Source: Rhodospirillales bacterium
GTDB lineage: Bacteria > Pseudomonadota > Alphaproteobacteria > Bin95
DNA length: 29,898 bases
Direction of reading: 5' to 3'
Assembly (NCBI GenBank): GCA_038143065.1
Contig: JAYQLI010000008.1
Span: 1 to 29,898, forward strand
Made by a program: the position numbers and the translations under genes. A model generated the notes under the pieces. The model worked only from the letters and a program-made list of their open reading frames with translations, was not told the DNA's origin and did no database searches. Shown piece after piece: positions 8,000 to 29,898 of this stretch; position 1 is the stretch's first letter, and each line of letters starts with the position of its first letter.

Positions 8000-8021
8000 A
8001 GTCACTTGATTCAACCTGTTC

Positions 8022-8042: not shown

Positions 8043-8065
8043 TAACATGCTTGGAAAGTTAAATT

Positions 8066-11639: not shown

Positions 11640-11750
11640 TTGAACTTAATTAGTTAAGACGAAGTATCTGAGTTCGGCGATAGCTGAACGCTCGTAGATG
11701 CGAAGCAGATGCGATTGACGATAAAGATATTCAAACAGCTCCAACTAAGC

Positions 11751-12089
11751 CTAATATTCTTCTCCAAGCATAATCGTGAGCACACGTCTGGTCACATGTG
11801 GATCACTTGGATCAGGACTGTGGTGCATCAGATCAAGGTCGTAGTAATCGATCTTCCAAAAGACAGTATTGCCCTCATACTCAATTGCTCCAAAGTCGTG
11901 TTCGCCAAATGGATCATTGCGCTCAGAGAAGTCATCAAAACCTTTCACCAAATTTAAGATGCAATCCACTGAGTCCAATGCAATGAATCTATGCCTTGTG
12001 TGATGATGAGTTTGCAATTTGGTGATGGTGCGGGTTTGATCGTTTAGAAGGGCAATGGATTGGGCTGTTCTGTCAACGTCGGGCTGCAA
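11751..12089 (-). CDS. DUF3768 domain protein
   Basis: AAGGAG RBS and TTG start. Signature FDDFSERNDPFGEHDFG...FWKIDYYD...SPDPSDPHVTRRVLTIMLGEEY. Confidence 0.85.
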   Translation of the reverse strand: MQPDVDRTAQSIALLNDQTRTITKLQTHHHTRHRFIALDSVDCILNLVKGFDDFSERNDPFGEHDFGAIEYEGNTVFWKIDYYDLDLMHHSPDPSDPHVTRRVLTIMLGEEY

Positions 12090-12150
12090 GCCTAGCTCCT
12101 TTTACAAAAGCATATGCTCAACGGTAAGTTTGGACGACTGATAATATAGA

Positions 12151-12178
12151 AAGAGCCACCAAAAAATGAGCGGCTCTT
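12151..12178 (-). terminator. Probable terminator after the AAA+ gene
   Basis: AAGAGCC...GGCTCTT inverted repeat followed by T-rich sequence on the minus strand. Confidence 0.4.
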
Positions 12179-12198
12179 CAGTAAGCTAGTAAGAAGCT

Positions 12199-12865
12199 TT
12201 AGGATCCAGTGCGGGCTTCAAGAAGCTGATCAAACCCAGACTTGTCCGAGGTAAAATCCAAAATTGTATCTTCCAACCAATCCATCATTTTACGTCCACT
12301 GCCTTCAAACCCTTTGTAATAGCTGGGTTTGAACTTCAGTTAAAAAGATACCGTTAGTATCTAATATGGCTTTGGCTCGGGAAGCCGTGATCTACGGTTG
12401 GATAGGTAAACTCTAGGCATCGACAACGATCTTGAGTGGCTGATCAATCCAGTGCAGGTTATTTGTGGTACAGATGATAATGCCAAAAGTATGCTCATCG
12501 ACGATTGCGCGCAATGCTTGCTTTCGCATGCCGGGCTTTAGTTGATCCACTTCTTCTATGATCAAACATCCGTGCAACATGCCAAAGGCGCGTTGGTAGT
12601 TCCAATTACCGGTGAGAATATCCAAACTCTTATCTTCTAACGCGCTTGCACGCACCGAGCATTTGCTGATGTTCGTCTTCTTCTGCATATCTACCCTTTC
12701 GCGATCAGGTTTTGCGGTCTCGCTCTTACCAGCGCCGCGTGGTCCGTGCAGAATAAGATGCTTGTGCCTTTGTTGGCAGTTTCTTTGACGATACGTTCGA
12801 CATAAGCGTCCACAAAGATAATATCGTCCAAAGTTTTGGGGGCGATGCTTTTCTTCAAACTTCAT
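12199..12865 (-). CDS. RFC/clamp-loader-clade AAA+ ATPase (several frameshifts)
   Basis: Rebuilt across frames: EKHRPKTLDDII (RFC box II-like), Walker A HGPRGAGKS, Walker B IIEEVD, sensor-1 ICTTN, DRC arginine finger, GSGR, ending LLEARTGS*. Confidence 0.75.
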
Positions 12866-12890
12866 TTAATTGTTCCTTTCGAACAGAAAT

Positions 12891-12916
12891 AGTGAGCAGT
12901 GCAAAGACTGCTCACT
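12891..12916 (-). terminator. Perfect 10-bp stem-loop between the hypothetical gene and the AAA+ gene
   Basis: AGTGAGCAGT-GCAAAG-ACTGCTCACT. Confidence 0.6.
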
Positions 12917-12928
12917 TATCAAGGCTGA

Positions 12929-13759
12929 TTATTCCGCAGGGATAGCTGCGCCATTTAACTCAGTGACATCGACATGTAAGGCAGGTTGAAACGACTGTGG
13001 CTCCATTCTTCACCAAACTTTTAGATTGGCTTTGCGCTGCTCTTTTCATTGCGCTTTGCAACGCCCGCTTGCTCTGTTTGACTTGCCTGCTCTTTAAGTT
13101 GACTGCCTGCCAATGTGAGAACAGTTTTAATTGGAACCAATTTATCTGTGCCAAACACAATAGTGCCGGTTCCATCCGTATTTTTGCGAATAAGGGCCAG
13201 GCTGAATTGTTCTGTCTGCGGGCTGCAGCTCGTCTTTCATCTCGATCTGCATAATACCATTTGCATCGCTTAATACGGTTTCTGCATAGTCTTTGTTCTG
13301 CTTGGCTTTATCCGCTTCGCTCAGCCCTTTCTTTATTGGCGCGACGGATCTCATCAATACCGTGATTGTCAGTAATGAACGTCTCAAGCGCATCGCCGGT
13401 TTGTCCTGTGTCAGAAGCGACTTTAAGAACGCGCGCATGAGAATGCGCGGCTTGCAATTGTTTGCTCCATATTAGGCCCAACAAATACAAGGCGGATGAT
13501 CTTCAAAGCTAGGTTGGTTTGAGCTGTTATATCCAATACCGCGCTCTTCCAATTGCTCCGTAATGGCTTTGGCTAAACCAGTTTTAGCGTCTTTGGCTTT
13601 GTTAAAAAGCTCAAGCAGCGTTTCTAGAATTGCATAGAGCTCTGCATTGCTTGCTGCATAGGTGCTTGAATTTTGCCATTTGATGCGGTTTGCAATCATC
13701 TCATCGATAACGGACGTTAGGCTTGGTGCTACATTTGTGTTTTGAGTTACGTTTGTCAT
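12929..13759 (-). CDS. Hypothetical protein (~275 aa, frameshifted)
   Basis: GGAGA RBS, MTNVTQNTN start. Protein-like reading runs across ORFs 13472-13855, 13308-13490 and 13142-13438 (ASNAELYAIL, LALKIIRLVF, HGIDEIRRA). The 3' end is approximate. Confidence 0.65.
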
Positions 13760-13894
13760 TTTTAGTTCTCCAAAGTTTAAAACTATGACTGGCGTGATTG
13801 TCGTGTCGATGAAAAAACAAACGTAATTCAAAGTTTGATGCGATATAAAAAGCATTAATATATATTATGATTGGCATCATTTTGGATTGATTTA

Positions 13895-14655
13895 ATGGAA
13901 AACTTTAAAGATCGCCCATTGCACTTTGCTTATGCGTGGCCCGTAAAGATCCCAAACGCAGCAAAAGAGTACTACCGCCGCACCTTTTCCAGAGGCAGAG
14001 CCTTGGCAATGTTCGGTCTATTACTACTGGTGGGAGTATCTAAGGCGCCATGAGGATTACAAAACTACCTGTGCGCAGGGTGGGCGTGGGCGCCATGCCA
14101 AGCTCTATGCAGACTTTGGCAATGTGCACGAAGGTGAATTCTGGGATTGGTGGCGTGCGCATAACTGGATCTTTGCTGAGCCACCCATAAGACAGGTTAA
14201 AGCTGTTGAGGCAGGGGAGCTTGCAGATGATCACACGCTCATCATAAAGGTTCCTTTGGAAACATCGCTTGCTATTACAACACGTCAGTTCAAACGCTTA
14301 GTGAAACCTCAAATAAAAGGCGGCGCGCCAGAAGTTGCCAAGCCGGGCGAAGTATCCAGTGGCAACGAAGCCTATCCTCTCTGCATTACATGAACATCTT
14401 CTCGTTTGGGATGCAAAGCAGAGGCATCCAAACTTCAAAGATGCAGAGTTGGCCGATCTAGTGGGTCTTCGCATCAATCACGTTGTGGATGGTGAAACTC
14501 TTCAATCCAGACGAGTCTTCAACTTTCAACAGACAAAATTGAAAAGAAGATTTATCGGCGAAAGCAATTGGCTGTGCAGCGTCACCTGCGCATTGCGGAG
14601 CAGTATATAGAGAATGCGGGGCAAGGGGCAGTTTCCACTGAGAGATAAGCGATAA
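13895..14655 (+). CDS. Hypothetical island protein, possible transcriptional activator (frameshifted)
   Basis: Rebuilt SVYYYWWEYLRRHEDY...LYADFGNVHEGEFWDWW...IFAEP...DAELADLVGL...YIENAGQG.FP across ORFs 13871-14053, 14124-14393 and 14335-14610. Confidence 0.65.
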
Positions 14656-14746
14656 TTCCACTGTGGGGCTTTGATCAGTCGGTGACTCCCAGTATGGGCC
14701 AACATTGTATCTCCGAGTCTTTGCCGGTTTTGGTGTGCCCAGAGTT

Positions 14747-14794
14747 TCTCATTGTAAACAGCGCAATGAGATAAATAACTGTATAAGTTATTTA
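14747..14794. promoter_or_regulatory. Two adjacent inverted repeats abutting an RBS
   Basis: TCTCATTG-N9-CAATGAGA (14747-14771) and TAAATAACT-N5-AGTTATTTA (14772-14794), followed by GGAG and the ATG at 14805. Confidence 0.55.
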
Positions 14795-14804
14795 GGAGTT
14801 AATT

Positions 14805-15134
14805 ATGAGCATAAGATTATTGGAACATATACGGGATGAGTTGAGAGGTTCTGAATGCAGTTCAAAACACACAGAGTTTTCAAGCTGGCTGGGGAAAAGT
14901 GAAAGTTACATTAGAACACTGCGTTTCCATCAGCTAGAACCCAGTGTGGAAGCGTTAAGTGTGTGTTCCCACAAACTTTGGACATTATGCAGACAAGTTT
15001 GAAAGGCAGCGATACGGACACTCTCACAAAATCTGGGTTCAAAGTTTTGACCGTCTTAAAGACTTGTGTGATCAAGCAATCTTGCCAAACAAGCCCATAA
15101 AATATGGCAAGAACCAGATAGGATGAGAGCGTGA
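14805..15134 (+). CDS. Small putative HTH-like protein (resembles DUF6626; frameshifted)
   Basis: AGGAG RBS; LLEHIRDEL...EFSSWLGKSESYIRTLR...PSVEAL. The family name is from memory and unverified. Confidence 0.55.
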
Positions 15135-15452
15135 GAAATTATTATCATGGATGATGCAAGAGAGGATATGCGAGGAAGCATTGATGTGATTGAGAAAGGG
15201 GCCAAGAGCACCAGTGATGAGCAAGCTGTGGATGACATCAAACTTTTTGCAAACACCACAAGCTTCCTTCGATGCTTTAGACACGCGCCTCCAAGTCCAA
15301 GGATGCCAAACCAAAGAAGAGGTCAAAACCCGCAAAGACTGTGTGACAGCAAAACCACCAATGTCTGTAATCCCAAAACCTCAAAACGGACCAAAGTCGC
15401 AAGGCACTACAACCGGCATGCCCTGCCATCAGCACGGCAATCTCACAGGTGA
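15131..15452 (+). CDS. Hypothetical protein (frame and end uncertain)
   Basis: Probable GTGA overlap with the previous gene and a protein-like N-terminal half (MDDAREDMRGSIDVIEKGA). Confidence 0.35.
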
Positions 15453-15734
15453 TTATGATGGCTCAAGCCACAGGCTGCACAAGCACCTCTCAGAACCAGT
15501 TAGAACCAACATGCGTTAAAAACTACGTCGCAAACTCCGCTGAAACACTACAGTTTGTGACGCCTGTAAGTGAATTTATCACTCGTTCCTTTATGTCTAG
15601 AGATGCATAGTTAAATGCGAATTAGAACAAACATGGCTGAATTAAAATGAGACAATTTTGACCGCTTTATTCACAATAAACAAAACTTTAGCTTAAGTCT
15701 CTCCCAACGTTGTCACTTACGACTATCCATATTT

Positions 15735-16473
15735 TTAAGCTGCTTCCAATGCTCCAGTAATTAATCCTGTAATTTCTTCTGGGCTGGTTTGGCTTATGGC
15801 CTTATCTGCGACTTTACTACCTCTTCTTAACACCGCAACTCGGTCACATACTTCAAAGACGTCTGGCATACGGTGACTCACTAATATTACCGCATGCCCT
15901 GTGTCTTTTAATTGTTTGATGCGTGCTAAAACTTCAGCTACCTGGCGTACGGAAATGGCCGCAGTAGGTTCGTCCATCAATACAATCTTGGGGTCTGACA
16001 GGCGTGTTCGCGCTATTGCGACAGCTTGCCGTTGCCCACCTGACATCTGTGCGACCAAGTCGCGAGGTCGAGTTTCAGATTTTAATTCCTTAAACAATTC
16101 AGCCGCACGGTTATACATTGCTGTGTGATTTAGCTTTGAGAAAAACCCTACTCCTGTTTCTAATTCCCTACCGAGAAATACATTCGCTGCAGCAGTAAGG
16201 TTGTCGCAAAGTGCCAGATCTTGATATACAATTTCAATTCCACTTTTGCGGGCATCTACCGGACGATTAAAGACAACTTTTTACCTTCCAAAAAATTTCT
16301 CCAGCGGTTGGAGCAAAGTTTCCAGCAATGATTTTCATTAAAGTGGATTTCCCAGCGCCATTATCGCCCATTAGGCCCAATGCTTCGCCTGGAGCGATAT
16401 GTAGATTAACTTCTTGAAGGGCTTGGATTGCCCCAAAGTTCATTTTTATAGATTTTAATTCGAGCAGCTTCAT
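15735..16473 (-). CDS. Sugar ABC transporter ATP-binding protein, single domain (frameshift near 16280)
   Basis: [10 protein letters not shown] Walker [14 protein letters not shown] signature, VLMDEPTAA Walker B, VSH. Confidence 0.92.
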
Positions 16474-16576
16474 AAATTCTCCCTAGATCTGTCAATTTTC
16501 AAATAATCAAGTGACGATTTGGTTGTGGTTCTTTTTATATTTTAACGCTATTTTAGAACTAGATAAACATTTTTTT

Positions 16577-16610
16577 GCAAAATTATTTGCTTTATGGCAT
16601 AAAAAATTGC
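16577..16610. promoter_or_regulatory. Two GCA-N8-TGC candidate operators
   Basis: GCAAAATTATTTGC (16577-16590) and GCATAAAAAATTGC (16597-16610) in the divergent ATPase/regulator promoter region. Confidence 0.6.
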
Positions 16611-16646
16611 ATATATACGTTTTTTATTGTGTTTAAAAGGATGGAA

Positions 16647-17807
16647 ATGACAGAGAAACAATCTTCTAAATTAGACTTTGAAAAGTTGATGTCTGATATA
16701 GAAAACGGTATGCGCGATATGGGTCGGAGCGCGCGCAGAATTGCTGAATTTCTGTATTCCAACACTGATGAAGCAGCATTGTTATCTACTGCTGAGGTGG
16801 CGCAAGCCTGTCATGTGCACTCTTCCTCAGTAGTCCGCTTTGCTCAAACTTTAGGATTTAGTGGATATAAACAGCTGCAGGGTGTTTTGAAAACGCAATA
16901 TAAGTCAAATCTAGAACGTCTAGAGACACTGCAATCGTCTGAGCCAATTGAAACTTCGGGAAGACGCTTCAGTATTTTTGTTTTGGCCGACTCAGGGCGA
17001 TCATTCAACGAGGCATTGCGGACTGCAGCACTGAAGTTTGCGGAAACCGATAATGAAATCACTATTGAAGGCGATTATGTGGTTTCTAATGAAATAGAGC
17101 CGAAAGAGTTCGCGAATAAAATCGAAAAAGCTTCAAAAAAATATGATGCAATATTTTTAGTTGCGAGAGACCACCCTTTGATCAATGACGCTGTGCGAAA
17201 GGCCGTCGAGCATGGCGCATTCGTAATTTGTTTAACGACAGATTTGCCAGCTTCTGGCCGCACTTGCTACGTTGGTTCTGATCAATACGCTTCCGGGTCT
17301 TCTGCCGCTTGGTTAGTTGGTAAAATGGCCCATAATCCGCAACGCAGCCGTGTTCTTCTGGTTTATAGTGTGCCGTTTCGATGCCAACAAGATAGAGAGC
17401 AGGGATTTCGGCATATATTACGAACTGAGTTTCCTCATTTGATACTAGACGAACGCGTATCGTCAAATGAAGATTCGTTAATTACCCACAAATCAGTCAG
17501 GCAATATATCGAAAAAAATGGACCTCCTGCAGCAATTTACAATGTTTCAGGTGCCAATTTAGGTATTGGGAAAGCATTGGACGAGCAGAATTTGCTTTCT
17601 GATGTAGTTTTCATCGGTCATGAGCTGAATGTGAATTCTAAGCAGTTGCTGCGGATAGGCGCCATGGACGTCACGATTGGTCATAATATGGATGCAGAAA
17701 TCTCCTTGGCAGTTGATGCGCTGAGACAGGCGCGGTCGGGTAAAGTGCCTCAAAACGCGATTGTGGAAAGTCAAATATATACGCGCTACAACATCCCTGA
17801 ACTTTAA
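16647..17807 (+). CDS. Transcriptional regulator: RpiR/MurR-type HTH fused to a LacI/periplasmic-binding-protein-like sensor domain
   Basis: N-terminal RRIAEFL...STAEVAQACHVHSSSVVRFAQTLGFSGYKQLQ. C-terminal VICLTTDLP..R..YVGSDQYASGSSAAWLVG, DREQGFR, IYNVSGAN, FIGHEL. Uninterrupted ORF. Confidence 0.88.
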   Translation: MTEKQSSKLDFEKLMSDIENGMRDMGRSARRIAEFLYSNTDEAALLSTAEVAQACHVHSSSVVRFAQTLGFSGYKQLQGVLKTQYKSNLERLETLQSSEPIETSGRRFSIFVLADSGRSFNEALRTAALKFAETDNEITIEGDYVVSNEIEPKEFANKIEKASKKYDAIFLVARDHPLINDAVRKAVEHGAFVICLTTDLPASGRTCYVGSDQYASGSSAAWLVGKMAHNPQRSRVLLVYSVPFRCQQDREQGFRHILRTEFPHLILDERVSSNEDSLITHKSVRQYIEKNGPPAAIYNVSGANLGIGKALDEQNLLSDVVFIGHELNVNSKQLLRIGAMDVTIGHNMDAEISLAVDALRQARSGKVPQNAIVESQIYTRYNIPEL

Positions 17808-18630
17808 CTTGGTAGAGCCATGGGTTCTTCTGGTGTGGGAGGAGCGAATGAATATCCTCCCCAAACAGATTGATCAAACTGGATGACTGAACCGGTCATC
17901 ATACCGCTATCTGATGACGACAAGAAAGTCACAGCGCGCGCCACCTCGGCCGGATCTATTAATCGTCCAAATGGTTGCTCGGCGGCGGCTTTTTCCAGCC
18001 AATCTGCATCAGCTCCGTGATATTCACGTTGAATGCGGTCTTCGCCATCAGAAGCCATCCAGCCAATATTCAATTGGTTAACTCGAATTTTATTGCGCAT
18101 AAGCGCATAGCCTGAATTACGTGTCAAGTGGCTAAGGCGCCTTTGAGGCACAATATGGCGCGATAAATGGCTGGCCGGCAAGTGCCGAGGTGGACCCGAT
18201 ATTGACGATGGCGCCTTCTGATAGACTTTCCCCGGCGTATCATTATCTTTACCGCTTCTTGCATCAAAAAGAATGGGCTTTGGTATTAGTGCAAACATCC
18301 GATCGAACAACTCTCTTCGCTGGTGTCTAAAAAGGTTGCCTCGATCCGTTAAGCTGGCGGCATTGACCAGCATCATGCCCGTAATTTCGGTCACCTTCGG
18401 GCAATCAACTTGCGGCATGTGGTAATGTCCGCCAAATCAGCTTCAATAAAATATACTGGAACGCCGGTTTGATCTTGAATATTTTTCGCTACGCTTTGAC
18501 CTTTTTCGACATTTCGTCCAGAGGTAAAGACTGCTTTGGCGCCAGAAAGTGCAAATTGCCAAGCGATTGCTGCTCCAAGCCCTTGTGTGCCACCTGTAAC
18601 AATGGCGACTTTTTGATCAATTCTATTCAT
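17804..18630 (-). CDS. SDR family oxidoreductase (frameshifted)
   Basis: KVAIVTGGTQGLG, LVNAA, IRVNQLNIGW, PFGRLIDPAEVARAVTFLSS..SGMMTGSVI. Confidence 0.9.
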
Positions 18631-18680
18631 TTTTATCTCTTTCTTTTATTTCAATATTTTCTCTAGCTTCACGTATCGTT

Positions 18681-19576
18681 TCAACACAGAAAGATAGCTT
18701 CTACCGAATAGCCTGCGTTTTTCATCACGCGCAGCCTTCTTGATGGCCCGTTTGGGCCATTTTGGGGGCGGATTTTTGATCGGGTCTTGCTCGGCTTCTA
18801 CGACAAACCAGCCTTCATAGCCATGGGCGGCCAGGCGTTGAACGATGGCGTCAAAATCCAAGCTGCCATCGCGGGCACGGTAAAGGCGCCTTTGATCACC
18901 GCGTCAAAAAGCTGTGCCGGCTGCGATCAGCCCGGCGATCACATCTCCGCGTATATCTTTGGTATGCACATGGTTGATGCGGGCATGGTGCGTGTCGATC
19001 ACCCGCAAAACATCTCCGCCGGCAAAGGCCATATGCCCGGCGTCAAAAAGCAGGGGCAAGGCGGCGCCGGAATGGGCCATCAGAAGGTCCACCTCGGTTT
19101 CGATCGGAGCCGCCATATGATGGTGATATCAACGGCATACCCTGCGCGGCGCACCATTCGGCGAACGCGGTCATTTTGCGCCCATATTCTCTTGATCTGC
19201 GCCTCATCCAGCTTCAGTTTGCTGGCAAGCGGCAGATTGATCGCCTTGGATTGTACCGCGGTTTCGCCATAAACAATACAGGGTGCCCCCCATGGCTTTG
19301 AACAGCTCAAGTTGCAGGGCAATCCGGTCTTTCTCGGCTTCGATCTCGCCGCTCAGCAGTAGCCCCGAGAACCAGCCCCCGCAGATCGAGATCCCGTAGC
19401 GCTCAATCAGCATTTTCAAACCGGTGATCCATTAAAACGCGCCGCCCGGTTTCCATGCCGCTATAGCCGGCTTCGCTGGCTTGGCGCAGGCATTCTTCCA
19501 GCGAAACATCATCGCTGAGCTCTTCTAAATCATCATTCCACCAAGCAATAGGGGCGATGCCAAGCTTTGCTTTCAT
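18681..19576 (-). CDS. iolE: myo-inosose-2 dehydratase (many frameshifts)
   Basis: KLGIAPIAWWNDDL, AGYSGMETG, GGWFSG, LLFDAGH, INHVHTKD, GYEGWFVVEAEQDP; directly downstream of iolD. Confidence 0.9.
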
Positions 19577-19580
19577 TTGC

Positions 19581-21412
19581 TTATACTCCGATGCGTTGTT
19601 TGGCGCGGATCGCATCATGATCTTTGCGCGCTTCATTAACGCTGTCACGGGCAGAGATTTCGGGCACGCCGACATCCCAAGACGCATCCCCCGGGGTCCA
19701 TTCATAAGCATCAGAGGGAATGGTCAAAACGGTGGTTTTGTCATTGGCTTGGGCCCATTTCATCGCTTCATCCAATTCACCCAGCGTTTCCACGCGGCGC
19801 CCATAAGCGCCCATGGCTTCGGCATGTTTGGCAAAATCAACCGAAAATGGCGCTTTCACGCGGCTGTCTTTGATCAGGTTGTTAAAGGAGGCTCCGCCTT
19901 TGTAATTCTGCAGGCGGTTGATGATCGCATACCCGCCATTATCGGGCACAATCACGATAATTTTATGCCCGCTCAGCACGGTGGAATAAATATCCGAATT
20001 CATCATCATATAGGTGCCATCACCGATAATCACGATAGGGGTGCGGTTTTCATCGGCCATTGCGGCGCCCCAACCCGCGGGGATTTCATAGCCCATGCAC
20101 GAAAACCCAAATTCGGTATCTACCGTATTGGGGGCTTTGACGCGCCAGCATTTATTCACTTCGCCCGGAGGGCCGCCAGCCGCGGTGATCACCAGATCTT
20201 CTGTTTTGGCATTGTCTTGCACCACTTTAATCACCTGCGCGTAGGAGGGTATATGCGCATTGCTGGGTTTTTGCAGCTCATCAATCAAGCTGTCCCATTT
20301 GGCCATTTCATCGCGGCCTTTCTCCATCCAAGTGCCAGGGGCCGACCAGTCGCCCAAAGCCGCATCCATTTCGCGCAGGCTTTCGCGGGCATCCCCGACC
20401 ACCGAGATGGCGCGGTGTTTGGTGGCATCAAAGCGCGCTGCATTGATCGAAATGAATTGGGCATCGGCTTTAAAGCTGGTCCAAGACCCAGTAGTGAAAT
20501 CTTGCAAACGGGTGCCTATCGCCACAATCACATCTGCCTCGGCGGCCATGGCATTGGCGGATGCTGATCCGGTTACGCCGATGCCCCCGACATAGGCGGG
20601 GTGCTCGTGCAGCACGGCACCTTTGCCGGCAATGGTTTCGCAAAGCGGAATGCCGCGGGCTTGCGCAAAATCACCCAACACCTCTTCAGCCAATGAATAG
20701 CGCACCCCGCCGCCCGAAATAATCAAAGGCTTTTTGGCGGCTTTGAGGGCTGCGATCGCCTTATCAAATTGCTGTAAATCGGGGCGCGCGCGCGGAATGT
20801 GATGCAGCGTGGGTTCAAAAACGCGGCTGGATAGTCAAAAGCGATTTCCTGCGTGTCTTGGCACAGGCCGATAAAGGCCGGCCCGCAATCGGCTGGATCG
20901 AGCATTGCGGCAATCGCTTGTGGGAAGGATGAGATGATCTGCTCGGGATGCGTGATGCGATCCCAATAGCGGGTGACGGCTTTGAAGCTTTCATTCACGG
21001 TCAGGGTTGGGTTGTTGAAATGCTCAACTTGTTGCAGCACCGGATCTGGGCGGTTTGAAAATGTATCCACCCGAAAGCAGCAGCACCGGTAGGCTGGAAT
21101 GGGCCACGCCGGCCGCAGTGACCATATTGGTGGCTCCGGGCCCCACAGAGGAGGTGGCGATCATCAATTGCCGCCGCCGTTTAGCCTTGGCATAATCGCA
21201 GCAAGCGCCATCGATTGCTCGTTTTGTCCGCGCCACGTTGGCAATTGATCCTGCACCGCTTCTAAAGCTTCGGCCAAACAGGTCACATTGCCATGCCCGA
21301 AAATTGGAACACGCCGGCAAAGAGTGGCACGCGCTCGCCCTCGGTGAATTGATTGCACAGATATCGAACAACAGCCTGCGCCATCGTCAATCTGATTGTG
21401 TTTTGCGGCCAT
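19581..21412 (-). CDS. iolD: 3D-(3,5/4)-trihydroxycyclohexane-1,2-dione acylhydrolase, ThDP-dependent (frameshifted)
   Basis: IFGHGNV, WRGQNEQSMA, SSVGPGATNMVTAA, RPDPVLQQVE, GTRLQDFTTGS, EFGFSCMGYEI, GDGTYMMMNS, DNGGYAIINRLQ, WDVGVPE. Confidence 0.95.
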
Positions 21413-21469
21413 GTTTGATTCTCCGATGCCATAGATTTTAAATATTGTTAACTCTATTTCTCTAGACTT

Positions 21470-21631
21470 GCAATTAAAATTGCAAAAATAGTATGCTATA
21501 ACGCAATTATTTTTGCAGAATGGTTCAATGTTTTTTGGTATTTTTCTTACTAAAGTATGTTGAACCATATTTTTTGAAATGTTTTGAAAATTTAATTGAC
21601 AAAATAATTTCAATTATGCAACATTTATTGC
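21470..21631. promoter_or_regulatory. AT-rich iolD/iolG divergent promoter with three GCA-N8-TGC candidate operators
   Basis: GCAATTAAAATTGC (21470-21483), GCAATTATTTTTGC (21503-21516), GCAACATTTATTGC (21618-21631); TTGACA at 21596-21601. Confidence 0.65.
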
Positions 21632-21662
21632 AAATTAGAAATTTAAGGGTTTTAGGGGTGAC

Positions 21663-22674
21663 ATGGTTAATATCGCTGTGCTTGGCTGCGGAAGAATAGG
21701 CGCTATGCACGCCGCGAATGTAGCAGCTCATCCACGTACAAACCTTTGAAATGGTTTTTTGACGTTAAACGAAATGGCCGTTACGAATGTTGCTAATGCC
21801 CATCAGCTTCAGGGCGGCGCGAAGTGCACAGGAGGTGTTCGCTTCAGATCGTGTACAGGCTGTATTAGTAGCTACAGCGACACCCACACATGCTGATTAT
21901 ATCGAAATGGCCATTGCTGCGGGCAAGCCGGTCTTATGCGAAAAGCCAATTGACTTAAATCTGGAGCGAGTGAACCGGTGTGCTGAAGTTGTTTCGAAAT
22001 CTACTGTGCCCATCCAGTTGGGGTTTAATAGGCGGTACGATCCGGGTCATGTGGCTGCGCGAGAGGCCTGCTTGGCTGGTAAAATTGGTGATTTGCATCA
22101 GGTAATTATCACGGCTCGCGATCCTGCTTTGCCACCGCGGGCTTATCTCGAGGAGGCTGGTGGTTTATTTCGCGATATGACTATTCATGATTTTGACCTC
22201 GGCAAGGTTTATGTTGAATGAAGAGCCTGTAGAAGTTTTTCGCTCTTGCTAACGCCTTAATTGACCCTGTTTTGGGGCGCGAGTTAGGTGAGGTCGACAG
22301 CGCTATGATTATTTTACGCACTGTGTCGGGTAAGCAATGTCATATAAATAATTCTCGAACAGCAGTTTATGGGTATGATCAACGAGTTGAGCTCATGGGT
22401 AGTTCAGGCATGCTTATATCTGATAATCGAAAGCCTCATGAACTAAAGCACTATGGCGCTTCTGGAGTAGAAACTGCCGAGCCTTATCAATTGTTTTTTT
22501 TGGCGCTATGAAGAAGCGTTTATGGCTTCAATTGACGGATTTGTTAATTGCATCGAGAATGGGGCAACACCACTAGCGGGTTTCGAAGATGGTCGGCGAG
22601 CCCTTATTCTGGCAGAAGCGGCCTATCTTTCAATGGCTGAGAAGCGCATTGTCCAAGTATCGGAAATTGGATGA
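21663..22674 (+). CDS. iolG: Inositol 2-dehydrogenase, Gfo/Idh/MocA family (frameshifted)
   Basis: IAVLGCGRIGAMHA, ATPTHAD, CEKPIDL, GFNRRYDP, ITARDP, GGLFRDMTIHDFD, NSRTAVYGYDQRVE. Confidence 0.9.
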
Positions 22675-24104
22675 TGACCATTTACGATAAATTTGGCTAT
22701 TTGTTGGCGGAGCTTGGGCGGACTCTAGTTCTGGTGAAATACCGGTATATAGTCATGATACCGAACGCGTATTGGGCAAAGTGCCGACTGCCGATATTGC
22801 ATTAACGCAACGCGTAATTTCTGACGCGCAAGCAGCTTTTTTAGTTTGGTCAAAAACACCAGTTTGGGAGCGCGCGACACGGTTGCATAAAGTCGCGGAC
22901 GAAATGTCATCCCGTAGCGAGGAAGCTGCGCGCATGATAGTGTTAGAAACTGGCAAGCCCATTACTCAAGCTCAACGTGAATGGAGCTTAGCTGTAGACC
23001 AATTTCGATGGTATGCTGAGGAAGCGAGGCGAGTTTATGGGCGTATTGTTGAAACACGTGTGCCAAATGGCGAATTTAGTATTACGTGAGCCTGTAGGAG
23101 TTGTTGCTGCGTTTACGGCTTGGAACTTTCCTGCTGCTTTAGATTGTTCGTAAAGTCGCTCCAGCTTTGGCTGCTGTGTTCTGGTTATTCTGCGTCCGTC
23201 TAACCAAACCCCAGGTGTTTCCATGGTGCTCTTTGACTGTTTGCATTCCGCTGATCTCCGAGTGGCACAGTCAATTTATTGGTTGGCGCGGCGCAGGATA
23301 TTTATTCCCCCATTATGGAATCCAGCGTGGTTCGTAAAGGTGTCGTTGACTGGTTCAACCAAAGTGGGTCAACAGATGATCCGTGACCCGCTCGAACACT
23401 AAAAAAGGTATCAATGGAACTTGGTGGAAATGCACCGATGATCCTATTTGAAGATGGAGACACTAAAGCGCTGCTTTAGATGGATGCGTTGCTGCAAAAT
23501 TTGCGAATGCGGGGCGCGTGTCCTCCAGATAGGTTTTTCATTCACGAGCAACATTACAAAGAATTTGTTGAAGGTTTCAGGGACAGCGCAACTAAGTTGC
23601 GTCTTGGAGATGGTCTTGATCCGGCTACTGATATGGGGCCCTTGATCAATGAACAAAGAAGAACAGATATTTCCATCAAAGTAGCTCAAGCCCTTGATAG
23701 TGGAGCTCATCTAGAATGTGGCGGAGGACCCGCCGAGGAATTCGATACAGGATATTTCTATAAGCCTACCGTATTAACGAATGTTTCGGATGAGATGCTT
23801 GGTCTGGCTGAAGAGAACTTTGGCCCAATTGCTGCCATTACAAGCTTTTCCAATGAAGACAGTGATAGAGCGGCAAATAGCTCTCCCTATGGGTTTGTCA
23901 GCATATGCTTTTACTTCAGACCCCGCACGCGTTCGCCGAATTCAATCAAATCTCAAAGCCGGTATGGTTGGTGTAAACAGCTTTGCCTTAGCCGCGGCCG
24001 AAGTGCCTTTTGGCGGAACGAAATACTCGGGCATGGGCCCGCGAGGGCGGAATAGAAGGTCTTGCGGTTATTTAGATACCAAATTAACACAATGGGTAAT
24101 GTGA
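22674..24104 (+). CDS. NAD(P)-dependent aldehyde dehydrogenase, GabD/SSADH-like (many frameshifts)
   Basis: ETGKPITQA, WYAEEARRVYGR, AFTAWNFP, SLTGST, SMELGGNAP, EENFGP, PFGGTKYSG. Confidence 0.88.
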
Positions 24105-24111
24105 GGGATAG

Positions 24112-24928
24112 ATGATTAAAATCGCCTTAAAAGCTCATTGGATTGATAATAAAGCAACTTTGAACGGCTGGCTTTCGATAAACTCTGCTTTTGTAAGTGA
24201 AATTATGGCTGATCAAGGGTTTGATAGCCTAACGGTAGATATGCAGCATGGGGCCGTGAGTTATGAGGGTATGCTCGCGATGTTACAAGCGATGCGCGCC
24301 TCGCAGGTTGTTCCAATGGTGCGTGTGCCTTGGAACGAACCTTCAGTAATTATGAAAGCTTTAGATGCAGGTGCGTATGGAATAATTTGTCCCTATGATC
24401 AACAGCGCAAGTCAGGCAGAGGAATTCGTGGCATCGCTGCGATATCCCCCTGATGGCATAATGCATTTTGGATCCCTACGAGAGCAAATTTTCTGCAGGC
24501 TCAAACTATGCACAAGAGGCTAATGGCGAAATCGTCGGCCTTGCGATGATTGAAAACAGCAGAAGCATATACGCAGATATACAGGAAATTGTAAAAACGC
24601 CTGGGTTGATGGTGTTTATATCGGTCAGCTGGATTTAACCCTTGGATTAACAAAAGGGCGTTTGATACAGGATTTGACCGAACAGAACCTGAGATGGTTG
24701 AGGTCATTAAAGATATCTTAAACATAGCAAAAAGTGCTGGAATTTATGCTGAATCCATTGTGGTTCAGCAAAATACGCCGCCAAAGCAATTAGTTGGGGG
24801 TTTAATTTTACCACGATTTCTAATGATGTGCGTATTCTGCAACAACTGCTTCAAATTTGACTGCTGAAGCACGAGAACAAATAGGTGTTTGTGAAGGACG
24901 TAGCCGCCAAGATCGAGGAGGCTATTAA
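24112..24928 (+). CDS. HpcH/HpaI class II aldolase (frameshifted)
   Basis: NGWLSI, GFDSLTVDMQHG, VRVPWNEP, KALDAGAYGIICP, AMIE. Confidence 0.88.
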
Positions 24929-25194
24929 TATGAAAACTTACTTTTCTGGCGTGGCTGATAGAAACTCTAGTTCAAATTCGAGTAGGGGTAAAATTCAGCA
25001 GAAACTGAACGAGAAATTTGTGGTCTTGTGTCGGCTTTGAGTTCGAGCTGGCCTACTTTTTGCGCAGCATGAAAGCGGCTCATTGCCGTTTGTTTGTTGT
25101 TCAGAACCGGTTCTGGGATGAAAACATCACAGAACCATCCTGCTTGATTACGTATAAAAATAAGATCCTGTTTAAAAATCCAGTGGAGGACTAA

Positions 25195-26197
25195 ATGAAA
25201 CAGACGATCAAAACACTCGCTGCAAGCGCAGTGCTTGGCTACGGCCGGAGCGAGCTTTGCGGATAACTCAGATATTCGGGTTGGTTTTTACCCCAAAATT
25301 TTGAAAGATGACTTTCAAACTTTGATGACATCGCTGTCCAAAAAAGCATTTGCAATAAAGGCTTTACACTTGTAGGCGCGCCTGACCCTAATGGTGATAT
25401 TACGCGCAAGTGGATGCGTTGCAAAATTTATTGGCAAATGGAGCGAATGTAATTGTGTTTGCGCCGTTAGATGCTGCAGGCGTTCCTGCTGTTAAGCGCG
25501 CTAACGAAAAAGGAGCGTTGGTCTTCTCAATTGATGATGGCCCTGCGGGCAGTGAGGTTACAGCGGGCGTGCTGATAATCTGGTCACAGGCGTGAGCGCG
25601 GAAAGATGGTGCGTCGTTTAAGGGGAAAACTTGCTGGTCTGATAATAGTTAGCGTTCTTGAACTTCAGGGAGGGTTAACGACACCGACGAGATTAGACCG
25701 TTCAGATACTTCTGACACCATGCGAGCATTAGCACCAGATGTAAAGGTAATTCAGCGTCCGACAGTGGACAGCAGATATGGCAACAGATACAGCTCAAAA
25801 CGTACTTACCCAAAATCCTTCGTTGACCAGGATCTTTATGGCTTCTGAATTAATGGCGACGGCGTGAATGCGCAGTTGAAGCGGGCGGGAAAAGATGCCG
25901 CCAGTAGGTGATCCGGACTTTCTGAATTCGCGCGTGGCAATCGATGGAACGCCGCAGGGTTTACAATTAATCCGTGACGGAGCGTTGGATGCGACTGTTT
26001 CGCAGCCATTAAGCGCATATGCAACGAAGACGGCGGAGCTTATAGAGCTGGTGTCAAATGGTGGTACAATTGAACTTGGTCCAAAACCGGATGGTCAAGT
26101 GATTGATACGCCCGTCCGGGCCTCATATCAGCTTAACGCAACATTGGTGACTAAGGAAAACGTGGATGCGCCTGGTCTTTGGGCAAATCAGCTTTAG
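25195..26197 (+). CDS. Sugar ABC transporter substrate-binding protein (many frameshifts)
   Basis: GGAGGA RBS, signal peptide MKQTIKTLAASAVL, NLLANGANVIVFAPLD, VLELQG, AIDGTPQGLQLIRDGALDATVSQP. Confidence 0.85.
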
Positions 26198-26276
26198 CAT
26201 AAATTAGGCTTTGAAGTTAGCTCAGCAAAATAAACATAATTCTCCGTGAGCTAAGTTATTTCTGAGCTTTGAATGT

Positions 26277-26301
26277 TTTTGGGCCCTTTTGGGGCCCAAA
26301 A
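26277..26301. terminator. Perfect 10-bp stem-loop after the binding-protein gene
   Basis: TTTTGGGCCC-TTTTG-GGGCCCAAAA. Confidence 0.65.
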
Positions 26302-26488
26302 GATCAACGAGTTTATACAGCATAAACTTCATCGTAAAAATCATTTTAACTGACGATGCTTTTGTTGAAACTCGGTTGGCAAAGGAAGATCAAAATTGTC
26401 GGAATTATTTTCGACAAAAATTTAAAATTTGATCGTATTTTTTTAGTGATACGATATCTCAATTAAGACATCTTTGGAAACGAAAAAA

Positions 26489-27534
26489 ATGAACTCAGAA
26501 AATAATTCCCACATGGATTTAGATCTAAACGAAAACAAATCGTCAAAGCTAGCTGCTTTTGGCAACACTTTCGTTGCAAATGGTTATGTATCCGGTTCTA
26601 ATCCTGTTACTTGTTATCGGGGCAATTGTCGCGCCACGATTTTTAACAAGTTATAATTTATTAAATATTCTCGAGCAGGTCAGTGTTTTAGGTCTTACCA
26701 CAATCGGACTTACATTTATTCTGCTCATTGGCAGATTGGATTTATCGCTTGAAGGTTTAGTAGGTTTTGCGCCCATGTTGCGGCAGTTTTACTGGTGCCA
26801 GTAGCTTCTGGAGGATTTGGAACTGAATTGCCTGGTTGGACCGGTCCTTTGATTGCGCTGGGTGCTGCAGGATTTATGGATGGTTAAATGGATTTATGGT
26901 CGTTAAAATAGGCCCGAACCCGTTTATCTCCACTTTAGGGCTGCTAGTTTTGCTGCGTGGGGGTGTTCTGATAATATCAAATGGCCGTTCTATTTATTCA
27001 CCAGGCGATGCGCTGACCTGTTAGGCTCCGAAAGGTTGTTAGGTATACCGCTTGCGGTTTTAGTGTTCGCTGTAATAGCTTTAGGCGTTGGTTTGATGCT
27101 CCAATTTCATCGTTTTGGAAGAGCTTTATATGCTGTTGGTGGCAATAGAGTCTGCCTTAAAAAGGGCCGCTGGAATAGATGTAGATAGGGTTATTTGGAG
27201 TGCTTTTTGTCGTTTCAGGTTTGCTTGCAGGGCTCGCTGGAATTTTGATGACAGGTAGATTGGATTCAGCTGTAACTACCCAAGGCCAAAATATAATTTT
27301 TTCAGCTTTCGCAGCTGCTGTTATCGAGTGAATTATGTAAGTTTGGGAGGTGGTCGAGGCACTGTGACGGGGTGATTAGTGGTGTGCCTTAGGAGTCATT
27401 GCTGCGCCTACTTACATTAGCTGATGTTCCCTTCTTTCTATGTGCAAGCTACTACGGGCGCGGTTATTATAATTGCGGCTGTTTTAACCACTTTAGCAAA
27501 TAAACGGTCTTCTGTCGCGCAAACTAGAACTTAG
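26489..27534 (+). CDS. Sugar ABC transporter permease, RbsC-like (many frameshifts)
   Basis: FLTSYNLLNILEQ, ILLIGRLDLS, NPFISTLG, FGRALYAVGGN, hydrophobic segments. Confidence 0.85.
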
Positions 27535-27548
27535 ATTAAGGGGCCGCG

Positions 27549-28499
27549 ATGACGAAACATATTTTGGTTGCGGGAAAATTACATCCGTCTGCGCTGCGCG
27601 TGCTGGACAGCGCCGAAGGCGTTTCGTTCGATTACGTTCCCGATGCGGATCCCACCGCTTATTTGCCACTGCTGCCCAAGGCGCAGGGATTGGTGCTGCG
27701 CACGCAAACTTTAAATGCGGCTCATATCGCAACCGCGCCTGATTTGCAGATCGTTTCCCGCCATGGTGTTGGGTATGATGCGGTTGACGTGCCGGCGTTA
27801 ACCCAGCGCGGTATTCCTCTGGCGATTGTGGGAGATGTAAATTCGCGCACCGTTGCCGAACATGCGATGCTGCTGCTTTTGGCCGCCTCGCGCTGTTTGG
27901 TAAAATCGGTCACGGGGTTTCGCGCTGGCGATTGGGCGCAGCGTAATATGTTTGAACCGCGGGAGCTCTACGGAAAAACGCTTTTAATCGTTGGCTATGG
28001 GCGCATTGGGCGGCATTTGGCGCAAATGGCCAAGGCTTTTGGGGTGCATGTTCTGGCCTATGACCCTTATCTAGGCGCGGATCACTTTGCCGGTGCCGAA
28101 CAGGTGGCCGATATTTCGACGGGTTTGAAACGGGCCGATTTGGTGTCGCTGCATATTCCAAAAGCGGATGGCCCAATATTGGGCGCGGCTGAATTGGCAT
28201 TGTTGTCGGCGCATGCCGTGGTGGTTAACACGGCGCGCGGTGGTTTGATTGATGAGCCGGCCTTGGCGCAAGCTTTAAAAGAAGGTCGTTTGGGGGCTGC
28301 CGGTTTGGATGTGCTCGAGGTTGAGCCTCCCTCTTATGATCATCCTTTATTTGGCCTCGACAATGCGATTATCACGCCGCATGCGGCTGGTCTTACCGAA
28401 GAATGTGCCGAGCGGATGGGCATGGTTTCGGTGCAGAATGTTTTGGATTATTTCGCTGAAACGTTAAATCCGGATCTTGTGGTCAATGGTCCCTTTTAG
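27549..28499 (+). CDS. D-isomer-specific 2-hydroxyacid dehydrogenase (SerA-like, no ACT domain)
   Basis: SRHGVGYDAVD, VAEHA, GYGRIG, VSLHIP, VNTARGGLIDE, AGLDV..VEP, TPHAAG. Intact ORF. Confidence 0.93.
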   Translation: MTKHILVAGKLHPSALRVLDSAEGVSFDYVPDADPTAYLPLLPKAQGLVLRTQTLNAAHIATAPDLQIVSRHGVGYDAVDVPALTQRGIPLAIVGDVNSRTVAEHAMLLLLAASRCLVKSVTGFRAGDWAQRNMFEPRELYGKTLLIVGYGRIGRHLAQMAKAFGVHVLAYDPYLGADHFAGAEQVADISTGLKRADLVSLHIPKADGPILGAAELALLSAHAVVVNTARGGLIDEPALAQALKEGRLGAAGLDVLEVEPPSYDHPLFGLDNAIITPHAAGLTEECAERMGMVSVQNVLDYFAETLNPDLVVNGPF

Positions 28500-28508
28500 G
28501 AGAATGCA

Positions 28509-28571
28509 ATGAAGGTTGGTTTGATTGGATCAGGGTTTATGGGCAAAGCCCATGCGTTTGGCTCTGATTAA
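28509..28571 (+). pseudogene. 20-codon N-terminal remnant of a Gfo/Idh/MocA oxidoreductase
   Basis: AGGAG RBS, then MKVGLIGSGFMGKAHAFGSD* (Rossmann GxGxxG motif); no continuation in any frame before the next gene. Confidence 0.7.
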
Positions 28572-28612
28572 CTGTATCCAATCAACCCAGGATGGCAAAT
28601 GGCGAACAAGGG

Positions 28613-29668
28613 ATGAAAAAAATGCAGCATCAAAAAGCAATTCGAGTTGGGCTGATTGGATGCGGATTTTATGCACAAAATCACCTCCATGCGTGGGATT
28701 ATTTGAAGGCTCGTGGGGTTGAGTTAGTTGGCGTGTGTGATCTTGATGAAGACAAGGCACAGCGAGCGGCTAAGGAATTTGGAACAAATTTTTATACGAA
28801 TATCGACAAGATGCTCGCGTTAGAGGACCTAGATCTCATTGATATCGTTACACAGGCTGAGCACCATAAAGATCTTGCTTTTGCTGTTTTAGAAAAAGGC
28901 ATTTCCGCTATTGTTCAAAAACCCTTTGCTCCCACCTTGCCTGACTGTATCGAAATAGTTGACAAGGCAAAATCTTCCGAAGCTTGGCTTGCCGTTCATG
29001 AAAACTTTCGGTTTTCCCGCGTTATGCGATGCGTAAAAGAAATTATCACCAGTGGTGAAATAGGCGATTTAAATTGGGGACGGCTTACATTCAGGACTGG
29101 ATTTGATATCTATAAAAATCAACCATACCTGGCTAACGAAAAACGGTTCTCTATTTTGGATTCAGGAATTCATATTTTAGATTTAGCACGTTTCTTTTTT
29201 GGCGAAGTCGAGCGTCTTCATTGTGAAACACAAAAGCGGAATCCTCGCGTTTTGGGAGAAGACACAGCTACAATTATGTTAAGACATGACACGGGCGCAG
29301 TAACTGTCGTTGAAACAACATATCAGGCCAAGCGATTACCTGATTACTTTCCACAAACATTGTTAGAAATTGAGGGAACCTCAGGATCAATACTACTGAA
29401 ACCTGATCAAGTGATTACAGTTACTGCAAATAATAAATCCTATGATCGCGTTATCGAAACACCGATGCTCCCCTGGTTCTCGAAAGAATGGTGCGTCTCA
29501 CAGGAAGCCGTTCTGAACACAAATTCGCACTTAATCGACTGCTACAGACAAGGTGTAGACGCTGAAATATCTGGTAGAGATAACTTAAACACATTTGCGC
29601 TTGTTGAAGCTGCTTACGATGCCGCAAGCTCGAATGGAAGCGTCCAGCCTTTAAGGTTTTCAGGTTAA
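28613..29668 (+). CDS. Gfo/Idh/MocA oxidoreductase resembling D-apiose dehydrogenase (ApsD)
   Basis: IGCGFYAQNHLHAW, QKPFA, VHENFR, WGRLTFRTGFD..QPYLA...RF, GIHILDLARF, GEDTATI, SGRDNLNTFALVEAAY. These match ApsD as I recall it. The start could be 28592, 28613 or 28622. Confidence 0.85.
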   Translation: MKKMQHQKAIRVGLIGCGFYAQNHLHAWDYLKARGVELVGVCDLDEDKAQRAAKEFGTNFYTNIDKMLALEDLDLIDIVTQAEHHKDLAFAVLEKGISAIVQKPFAPTLPDCIEIVDKAKSSEAWLAVHENFRFSRVMRCVKEIITSGEIGDLNWGRLTFRTGFDIYKNQPYLANEKRFSILDSGIHILDLARFFFGEVERLHCETQKRNPRVLGEDTATIMLRHDTGAVTVVETTYQAKRLPDYFPQTLLEIEGTSGSILLKPDQVITVTANNKSYDRVIETPMLPWFSKEWCVSQEAVLNTNSHLIDCYRQGVDAEISGRDNLNTFALVEAAYDAASSNGSVQPLRFSG

Positions 29669-29861
29669 CTTTGTCTAATTTTGATTTGTGTTGTCTTTCT
29701 AAGAGAAAGGTTATTCATGACTGAAGGGGTGCGTTTCCGGCATTGGTTCAAGACACAGTGGTTCCTCTAATCCAAACGAAGCAGTAAAACACACTTTGTT
29801 GCACACCTAATTAATTATTATATAACTTATTGTAATTGAATATTAATCTAATACCATCGCT

Positions 29862-29898
29862 ACTGAAAATCCTCGTGTCGGTGGTTCAAATCCGCCCC
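29862..29898 (+). tRNA. 3' half of tRNA-Phe(GAA), from the anticodon loop onward; att-site duplication, not an intact gene
   Basis: ACTGAAAATCCTCGTGTCGGTGGTTCAAATCCGCCCC contains the anticodon loop CTGAAAA, the variable loop and the T arm (GGTTCAAATCC). Upstream sequence has no D arm or acceptor 5' strand. Confidence 0.88.

Follow-up and report, generated by a model that had tools for sequence, protein, structure and literature searches.

A degraded, horizontally acquired inositol-type island in a Rhodospirillales bacterium and the conserved dehydrogenase-aldolase module of its intact relatives

Introduction

Inositols and cyclitols related to them occur abundantly in plants, in algae and as osmolytes, and serve as carbon sources. 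The canonical system for their catabolism (iol) is represented by IolG/E/D/B/C/J/A in Bacillus subtilis and by iolCDEB together with idhA and iolA in alphaproteobacteria; the product of IolD, 5-deoxyglucuronate, enters the kinase route of IolB and IolC. Here we analyze an island of iol-type genes on contig JAYQLI010000008.1 of a Rhodospirillales bacterium assembly (G000). The contig (C8) was taken in its entirety, and its 29,898 nt are referred to below as the window. At positions 15460-29873 it carries relatives of iolG, iolE and iolD together with an aldehyde dehydrogenase (ALDH), an aldolase of the HpcH/HpaI family and a D-2-hydroxyacid dehydrogenase (2HADH). Our reading, to which we assign a probability of about 70%, is that this region is an acquired and decaying copy of a 'second iol' regulon, and that the module, where intact, is accessory to the kinase route and likely oxidizes the IolD product.

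Several described systems resemble parts of this cluster. Thermotoga maritima has an oxidative inositol variant, IolG-IolM-IolN-IolO, which departs from the Bacillus lower pathway, uses extra dehydrogenases and is not known to include IolE, IolD or an HpcH aldolase; the only IolM-like sequence met in the present genome is a fragment (59 bits) beside an iolC pseudogene on another contig. The GarL, HpaI and RhmA routes for 2-keto-3-deoxy sugar acids share with the cluster the aldolase family and the phosphorylation-free cleavage of a 4-hydroxy-2-oxo acid. They rely on a dehydratase to provide the 2-oxo-3-deoxy acid, whereas here a 2HADH lies beside the aldolase and no sugar-acid dehydratase is conserved. 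Among solved structures the closest to the cluster aldolase is the hydroxyketoacid aldolase of Sphingomonas wittichii RW1 (SwHKA), which converts hydroxypyruvate and whose F210 contacts C3 of hydroxypyruvate (PMC10099721). The portion of that source available here gives no natural substrate for SwHKA (PMC10099721).

The intact form of the cluster is most similar to the canonical iol system, in that its IolG, IolE and IolD score above the NCBIfam equivalog cut-offs (391, 391 and 815 bits, respectively) and nearly all genomes that carry it hold iolB and iolC. It differs in having no iolB, iolC, iolJ or iolA of its own, in adding ALDH, HpcH and 2HADH, and in an IolD that belongs to a separate clade from the operon-linked IolD. 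The cluster is a variant of iol clusters rather than a new kind of system, and what the present genome holds is an ordinary transferred island in decay.

Results

The island has an intact twin in Pseudopelagicola

The Gfo/Idh/MocA oxidoreductase (Gfo) of the window has a 99% identical counterpart on the complete chromosome of Pseudopelagicola sp. nBUS_19 (G041), and the similarity extends over the whole island. Window positions 15460-29873 align with that chromosome at 96-97% DNA identity, and every gene is whole there. The order in G041 is an ATP-binding cassette (ABC) transporter ATPase and an RpiR regulator, then a short-chain dehydrogenase/reductase (SDR), iolE and iolD on one strand, and finally iolG, ALDH, HpcH, a substrate-binding protein (SBP), a permease, 2HADH and Gfo on the other. 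The rest of the contig (window 1-15400) is 68-74% identical to G041, and other G041 loci match the Rhodospirillales assembly at 65-76% identity or not at all. No close match to the island, nor to its flank, was found in nine genomes of the same genus. The left edge of the transferred segment lies near 15460. Because the island is 96-97% identical to G041 while the remainder of the contig reaches 68-74%, the sequence comparison indicates that it was acquired horizontally in recent times and underwent duplication and decay afterwards.

On a 6.3-kb contig (L039) from a metagenome-assembled genome (MAG) labelled Porticoccaceae, the genes iolG-ALDH-HpcH-SBP-permease encode proteins 99-100% identical to those of the Pseudopelagicola cluster, which reflects either mis-binning or a very recent transfer.

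Most genes of the island are pseudogenes

The assembly comprises 4.63 Mb in 52 contigs, with a completeness of 97.6%. The families recognized by NCBIfam profiles at 15.5-29.9 kb of the window are those assigned earlier by inspection of the same DNA without database searches (the sequence-only reading), which had named iolG, iolE, iolD, an SDR, a GabD-like ALDH, an HpcH aldolase and a 2HADH. On the minus strand are a PRK06198-type SDR, iolE (TIGR04379) and iolD (TIGR04377). The plus strand holds iolG (TIGR04380), an ALDH similar to succinate-semialdehyde dehydrogenase (SSADH) and GabD, an HpaI/GarL-like HpcH aldolase, pieces of a sugar ABC transporter, a 2HADH resembling phosphoglycerate dehydrogenase (PGDH) and glyoxylate reductase, and Gfo, with the RpiR regulator upstream (Table 1). 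Profiles run on the fragments of open reading frames (ORFs), together with local tblastn, also bear out that iolB, iolC, iolJ and iolA/mmsA are absent from the island. The sequence-only reading had, however, listed iolG, iolE and iolD as present, and under translation table 11 frameshifts break up all three.

Only RpiR, 2HADH and Gfo are open among the 12 genes of the island. At least nine are frameshifted, and their long frames are not restored by genetic code 4 or by reading either TAG or TAA as Q. Therefore no inositol pathway of any kind runs from the island, contrary to the earlier suggestion that the pathway works in the organism.

The intact, 96%-identical ortholog cluster of G041 served as the reference for decay. 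Over the 11.3 kb compared, the window differs by 340 substitutions and 93 indel events, 81 of which cause frameshifts; 12 of these are intergenic and the others are distributed as listed in Table 1. Two stretches are free of indels, 16620-17800 (RpiR) and 27430-29784 (2HADH and Gfo), and the broken parts contain 5-10 indel events per 500 bases. Within iolD all frameshifting indels fall in the 5' part, and the C-terminal 381 aa remain open. Substitutions lie mainly at third codon positions in iolD (46 of 54) and 2HADH (28 of 40), and are even across codon positions in ALDH (6/10/5), HpcH and the permease.

Window 24057-29668 has a further copy, 95% identical, on contig C9 (20052-25683, minus strand, locus L021). 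The C8 and C9 copies have 59 substitutions in common and a single shared indel event, with 49 events in C8 and 34 in C9; the C9 copy has eight frameshifts in 2HADH and six in Gfo. A similar duplication is found outside the island. Window 3000-10200 holds intact genes for LeuCD-like dehydratase subunits and a tripartite ATP-independent periplasmic (TRAP) transporter, DctPQM, and its 96% identical copy at C12:49632-56822 is broken into several frames; a third, partial copy is on C50. Homopolymer frequencies are equal on the 2.86-Mb chromosome contig (C35) and on the small contigs. We conclude that the breaks in the island are true pseudogenes and that single copies of a few genes are kept by selection, because the indels respect gene boundaries, those of C8 and C9 are independent, the identities of the duplicates vary, and the homopolymer frequencies are equal.

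Contigs assembled from four public runs (three DNA libraries and one RNA library) represent the intact-like form: compared with the window they have 130-132 gaps across 21.4-27.6 kb, and 2HADH and Gfo are gap-free. Runs X1, X4, X5 and X15 are salt-marsh, estuary, marine and seawater metagenome or metatranscriptome libraries from many studies, in which, where compared, the intact-like version occurs at similar depth. The share of sampled words (31-mers) of the window in the DNA runs is 0.53-0.54 and no listed public run exceeds 0.54, a measure that is uninformative on the frameshifts either way. Joints that skip 21403-27546 in three runs have 18-30 letters on their shorter side and were treated as unreliable; nothing was drawn from them.

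Long ORFs cover 0.84 of C35 and mostly 0.3-0.7 of the 51 small contigs (1.78 Mb). Of their sequence, 21% recurs on a second small contig with 73-99% identity, and almost none of the small contigs matches C35. The small contigs look like a large accessory fraction rich in decaying duplicates.

Table 1. Genes of the island in window coordinates, and the related gene pair on the chromosome contig
Feature	Position	Strand	Evidence and state
ABC transporter ATPase, pseudogene	15736..16476	-	mapped from G041 L036:12984-13724; 1-bp indels at 16277 and 16289
ATPase remnant ORF	15735-16118	-	127 aa, versus 246 aa in the intact ortholog
RpiR/MurR-family regulator, intact, 410 aa	16575..17807	+	98.7% identity over 392 aa to G041 ortholog; no indel at 16620-17800
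SDR oxidoreductase (PRK06198 type), pseudogene, 2 pieces	17804..18630	-	profile positions 88-268 and 3-78 on separate ORFs
iolE (myo-inosose-2 dehydratase), pseudogene, at least 4 pieces	18646..19711	-	TIGR04379 fragments 2-49, 54-119, 162-224, 244-284; 11 frameshifting indels
iolD (thiamine pyrophosphate-dependent ring-cleaving hydrolase), pseudogene, 3 pieces	19581..21371	-	TIGR04377 positions 229-615, 114-215, 58-114; 5 frameshifting indels
iolG (inositol 2-dehydrogenase), pseudogene	21663..22674	+	TIGR04380 across 3 ORFs; 4 frame-shifted high-scoring segment pairs (HSPs); 7 frameshifting indels
SSADH/GabD-like ALDH, pseudogene, at least 3 pieces	22697..24104	+	14 frameshifting indels
HpcH/HpaI class II aldolase, pseudogene, at least 3 pieces	24112..24925	+	11 frameshifting indels; intact ortholog 271 aa
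Sugar ABC substrate-binding protein (SBP), pseudogene, at least 3 pieces	25240..26200 (approximate ends)	+	ortholog L023:6582-7607; 10 frameshifting indels
Sugar ABC permease, pseudogene, at least 3 pieces	26474..27540 (approximate ends)	+	ortholog L023:7885-8943; 11 frameshifting indels, the last at 27429
2HADH, intact, 316 aa	27549..28499	+	97.2% identity to G041 protein; 0 indels
Gfo/Idh/MocA oxidoreductase, intact, 358 aa	28592..29668	+	98.9% identity to G041 protein; 0 indels; ortholog start aligns at 28613
Chromosomal 2HADH-HpcH pair	C35:2703509-2705189 (L118:9510-11274)		40-53% and 48% identity to island proteins; adjoins TRAP DctM and DctQ

To the left of and partly overlapping the island, window 10800-16500 is a stretch of about 5.7 kb without any ORF above 150 aa, holding small fragments only, such as an AAA_22 piece at 12413-12865. 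The two ends of the contig (window 1-46 and 29862-29898) both match one stretch of G041 near 838.8-839.0 kb, at 85% and 100% identity, respectively; that stretch lies about 3.7 kb upstream of the G041 island. It may be a repeat or the end of a mobile element where the assembly broke.

A conserved module attached to a distinct IolD

Eighty loci were fetched around HpcH homologs of 49-63% identity, with the G041 locus and a near-identical MAG contig at 100%; presence counts are lower bounds where contigs end. A cluster-type iolD is found in 33 of the 80. These 33 loci also contain 2HADH (31 loci), iolE (28), ALDH (22), SDR (13) and iolG (11), in a near-fixed order in which SDR-iolE-iolD faces iolG-ALDH-HpcH-2HADH-(Gfo), with short gaps between genes. 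The module extends over at least ten families of alpha- and gammaproteobacteria and at least 33 species-level genomes of Rhodobacterales, Hyphomicrobiales and a few gammaproteobacteria, including Roseobacteraceae, Paracoccaceae, Brucellaceae, Aurantimonadaceae, Aestuariivirgaceae, Rhizobiaceae and others, as well as Pseudomonas and Spiribacter. Culturable species with the intact cluster include Paracoccus halophilus, Gemmobacter lutimaris and Spiribacter onubensis. Judged by this synteny, the linkage of ALDH, HpcH and 2HADH to iolD and iolE, as the sequence-only reading had proposed, is real and broad.

The same reading had included an ApsD-like Gfo in the gene set, and this part did not hold. 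A homolog of the window's Gfo with at least 30% identity lies within 10 kb in 1 of the 33 loci, and other carriers have a levoglucosan-dehydrogenase-like Gfo in its place. Only 1-2 of the 33 loci have a Gfo, binding protein, permease or RpiR of the type seen in the window, which makes these genes local additions rather than part of the core. The module loci have no conserved sugar-acid dehydratase; what lies next to the aldolase is the 2HADH.

The IolD paralogs divide by context. In a tree of 52 IolD sequences, from which three short rows were excluded, the 19 IolDs from iolC/iolB loci fall in one clade and the 30 HpcH-linked IolDs in another; both clades are well supported, and the same genomes are represented in both. 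A third iolD of G041 (C1:2704544-2706373, L138, 800 bits) is located inside the HpcH-linked clade, beside a Thalassococcus sequence. All 33 iolD-linked aldolases belong to one clade of 61 in the HpcH tree.

The 2HADH-HpcH pair is also encountered without iol genes, beside a TRAP transporter on C35 (Table 1) and in loci of Geminicoccaceae and Burkholderiales. Such pairing outside iol contexts suits a two-step unit in which the dehydrogenase would make a 2-oxo acid and the aldolase would cleave it. In the C35 pair the 2HADH matches as two HSPs and appears to be split, and the DctM ORF has a short length of 364 aa.

Nearly all carriers of the module hold the kinase route

For the 33 genomes with an intact iolD-linked HpcH cluster, hereafter carriers, whole-genome searches were evaluated against curated NCBIfam cut-offs. 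Matches above cut-off were obtained for iolB in 32, iolC_N in 32 and iolD in all 33. About 19 carriers possess a separate standard operon, in which a second iolD is flanked by iolC and iolB or adjoins them. Another 11 contain the HpcH-linked iolD only, most of them with an iolC and iolB pair elsewhere, or adjoining the cluster in L051 and L075, where iolB and an iolC-aldolase fusion are next to the module. In Spiribacter onubensis (2.1 Mb) the genes run ABC transporter-SDR-iolE-iolD, then ALDH-HpcH-2HADH-Gfo-RpiR-iolG-iolC fusion (677 bits)-iolB (332 bits), with mmsA (664 bits) adjoining. Here the module sits inside a complete kinase-dependent regulon. G041 has a stand-alone canonical iolB (333.8 bits, cut-off 205) and mmsA, and a further locus with iolG, an IolE-like gene, iolD, iolC (310 bits, cut-off 300), an iolB-like gene, a class II aldolase and a LacI regulator.

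These counts run against a kinase-free pathway as envisaged in the sequence-only reading. That proposal was to fall if carriers always encoded iolBC elsewhere, which is largely what we find, and the gene set recurs in a genome without iolBC in just 1 of 33 cases, the MAG G043.

In the Rhodospirillales genome itself, the lack of iolB and iolC that a kinase-free route would entail was borne out for iolB but not entirely for iolC. No iolB was detected with TIGR04378 at E<=0.01, with the G041 IolB protein at E<=1 or by local tblastn. The only iolC match is a frameshifted fusion with a DKGP aldolase (NF047869), in at least five pieces at C7:35333-37170 (L009:16334-18170), and this region has no DNA match in G041. 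Its neighbors are a zinc-dependent alcohol dehydrogenase fragment, which gives the weak IolM-like match (59 bits), a GntR regulator and TRAP permease fragments. For mmsA the best TIGR01722 match scores 250.9 bits, below the cut-off of 448.5, and local tblastn revealed no second iolD or iolE. A functional canonical iol locus is thus lacking, with iolG, iolE and iolD split, no iolB, a kinase-aldolase pseudogene only and mmsA below cut-off. The missing iolB and iolC of this genome reflect loss or non-acquisition, not a new route.

Structural relatives of the module enzymes

The G041 aldolase is a full-length match to its family (HpaI, 171 bits over positions 1-247 of 249; GarL, 143 bits) with 21 relatives in the PDB; the chromosomal paralog on C35 matches PF03328, and the window's own copy is fragmentary. 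The G041 protein does not reach the equivalog cut-offs of HpaI, GarL or RhmA (171 vs 369, 150 vs 393 and 120 vs 441, respectively). Its nearest solved relative is SwHKA (PDB 6R62; 198.9 bits, E 8e-58, residues 4-254), and the hydroxypyruvate converted by SwHKA (PMC10099721) is a product predicted by the scheme of the sequence-only reading.

For the dehydrogenases the PDB gave no indication of the substrate. The 2HADH returned generic PGDH and glyoxylate-reductase relatives only, and a search with the ALDH gave no match at E<=1e-120. The best solved match of the window's Gfo is PDB 5UHW (265 bits), named 'Oxidoreductase protein' in the PDB. This entry is probably the D-apiose pathway dehydrogenase ApsD; the Gfo itself stands outside the conserved module.

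Discussion

We propose that the intact core, consisting of iolD, iolE, HpcH and 2HADH, usually with ALDH and often with SDR and iolG, acts as an accessory to the kinase route and not as its replacement. The substrate would most likely be the IolD product, either 5-deoxyglucuronate or, where another cyclitol is the source, one of its stereoisomers. ALDH would oxidize it to a deoxy-hexarate, from which 2HADH would produce the 2-oxo acid (a 2-oxo-3,4-dihydroxy acid), and HpcH would then cleave the latter to hydroxypyruvate (or pyruvate) and an aldehyde such as malonate semialdehyde. At the level of family chemistry the order ALDH, 2HADH, HpcH is coherent, because 5-deoxyglucuronate has no 2-hydroxy-acid end until its aldehyde is oxidized. 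In its most specific form, the intact cluster would constitute an undescribed ATP-independent oxidative branch for inositol or cyclitols, running beside the IolB/IolC route, in which ALDH, 2HADH and an SwHKA-like HpcH yield hydroxypyruvate and malonate semialdehyde; we put this forward tentatively, as the less probable outcome. The sequence-only reading had mentioned as its alternative that the extra enzymes stand beside a standard pathway encoded elsewhere, and this fits the data at least as well as the oxidative route does.

Several observations weigh against our interpretation. The frameshifts were judged from the distribution of indels and not from raw reads of the source. The chemistry proposed is read from synteny and family-level homology alone, and the G041 aldolase has a His at the position aligned to SwHKA F210. 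ALDH is absent from 11 of the 33 loci. Nor is the aldolase subfamily confined to iol contexts: 24 of the 61 members of the HpcH clade lack iolD in the flanks that were fetched, and one such Paracoccaceae locus (L084) adjoins an NMT1-type ABC system that offers no clue to the substrate. Finally, one carrier, the MAG G043 (contig C23, locus L043), has no iolB or iolC match; it has mmsA (678 bits) about 6.5 kb from the HpcH-linked iolD on the same contig. Provided that the MAG is complete, G043 could be genuinely kinase-free.

The intact cluster might also be a self-contained regulon for a different cyclitol, such as a stereoisomer or a methyl-, deoxy- or amino-inositol, whose cleavage product is unsuited to IolB and IolC and needs ALDH, 2HADH and HpcH. 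In many carriers the cluster includes an RpiR regulator and an ABC transporter of its own, further dehydrogenases and a gene for an IolE-like TIM barrel are found nearby, and both the separate iolC-iolD-iolB operon of about 19 of the 33 carriers and the two IolD clades would be expected of a dedicated system. However, in the 11 carriers with the HpcH-linked iolD only, IolD and IolE must also feed the kinase route, and IolG, IolE and IolD of the cluster pass the myo-inositol equivalog cut-offs. We regard a separate cyclitol as possible, though the odds are against it.

An accessory module that has decayed in this genome presupposes that the frameshifts are real. Were they assembly or consensus errors on small contigs of low quality, the cluster would be intact and functional in the living organism. 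The contrast in long-ORF coverage between the 2.86-Mb contig and the small contigs could be understood in this way, 45% of the 1-bp indels are within runs of at least three bases, and two error-laden consensus sequences would likewise combine shared substitutions with private indels, as C8 and C9 do. Yet errors of this kind would not be expected to stop at gene boundaries, leaving RpiR, 2HADH, Gfo, the LeuCD-like genes and the TRAP genes clean beside neighbors with 5-10 events per 500 bases. Each duplicated pair combines an intact copy with a broken one, the identities of duplicates range over 73-99% instead of reflecting a single error level, homopolymers are as frequent as on the chromosome contig, and about one-third of the indel events are 2-6 bases long. 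Consensus error is therefore improbable, and we retain the view that the island is decaying.

Somewhat less probable still is that ALDH, HpcH and 2HADH have nothing to do with inositol and form a hydroxy-dicarboxylate or sugar-acid module that merely adjoins iolD and iolE. The 2HADH-HpcH pairs without iol genes on C35 (with TRAP), in Geminicoccaceae and in Burkholderiales, and the 24 of 61 clade members lacking iolD in the fetched flank, would agree with this. Against it, the same order with short gaps is maintained across at least ten alpha- and gammaproteobacterial families, the module lies between iolD and iolG-iolC-iolB in a genome of 2.1 Mb, and the HpcH-linked IolD forms its own clade.

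That the island is a working ATP-independent oxidative lower pathway replacing IolB/IolC/IolJ/IolA in this organism, as the sequence-only reading supposed from the absence of iolB, iolC, iolJ and mmsA from the island, is scarcely credible, even with iolB nowhere in the genome and ALDH, HpcH and 2HADH syntenic with iolD/iolE in many genomes, given that iolG, iolE, iolD, ALDH and HpcH are all frameshifted here, that 32 of 33 intact carriers have iolB and iolC, that an iolC-aldolase fusion pseudogene persists on C7, and that the ApsD-like Gfo is found in 1 of 33 loci.

A full-text literature search, with subscription journals mostly outside its reach, found nothing linking HpcH aldolases or hydroxypyruvate to iol genes, inositol or 5-deoxyglucuronate, and no mention of 5-deoxyglucarate or variants of that name; one query yielded known routes only. 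We provisionally consider the module undescribed.

For this genome the analysis amounts to a correction, in that no use of inositol should be inferred from a pseudogene relic. At the same time, comparison of the relic with its intact relatives exposes a conserved and apparently unstudied ALDH-HpcH-2HADH module attached to a distinct pair of IolD and IolE paralogs. If the module does represent an oxidative branch or a route for another cyclitol, iol genes of marine and rhizosphere genomes would have to be read differently, and the module would provide a natural role for a family of hydroxyketoacid aldolases known so far mainly from biocatalysis.

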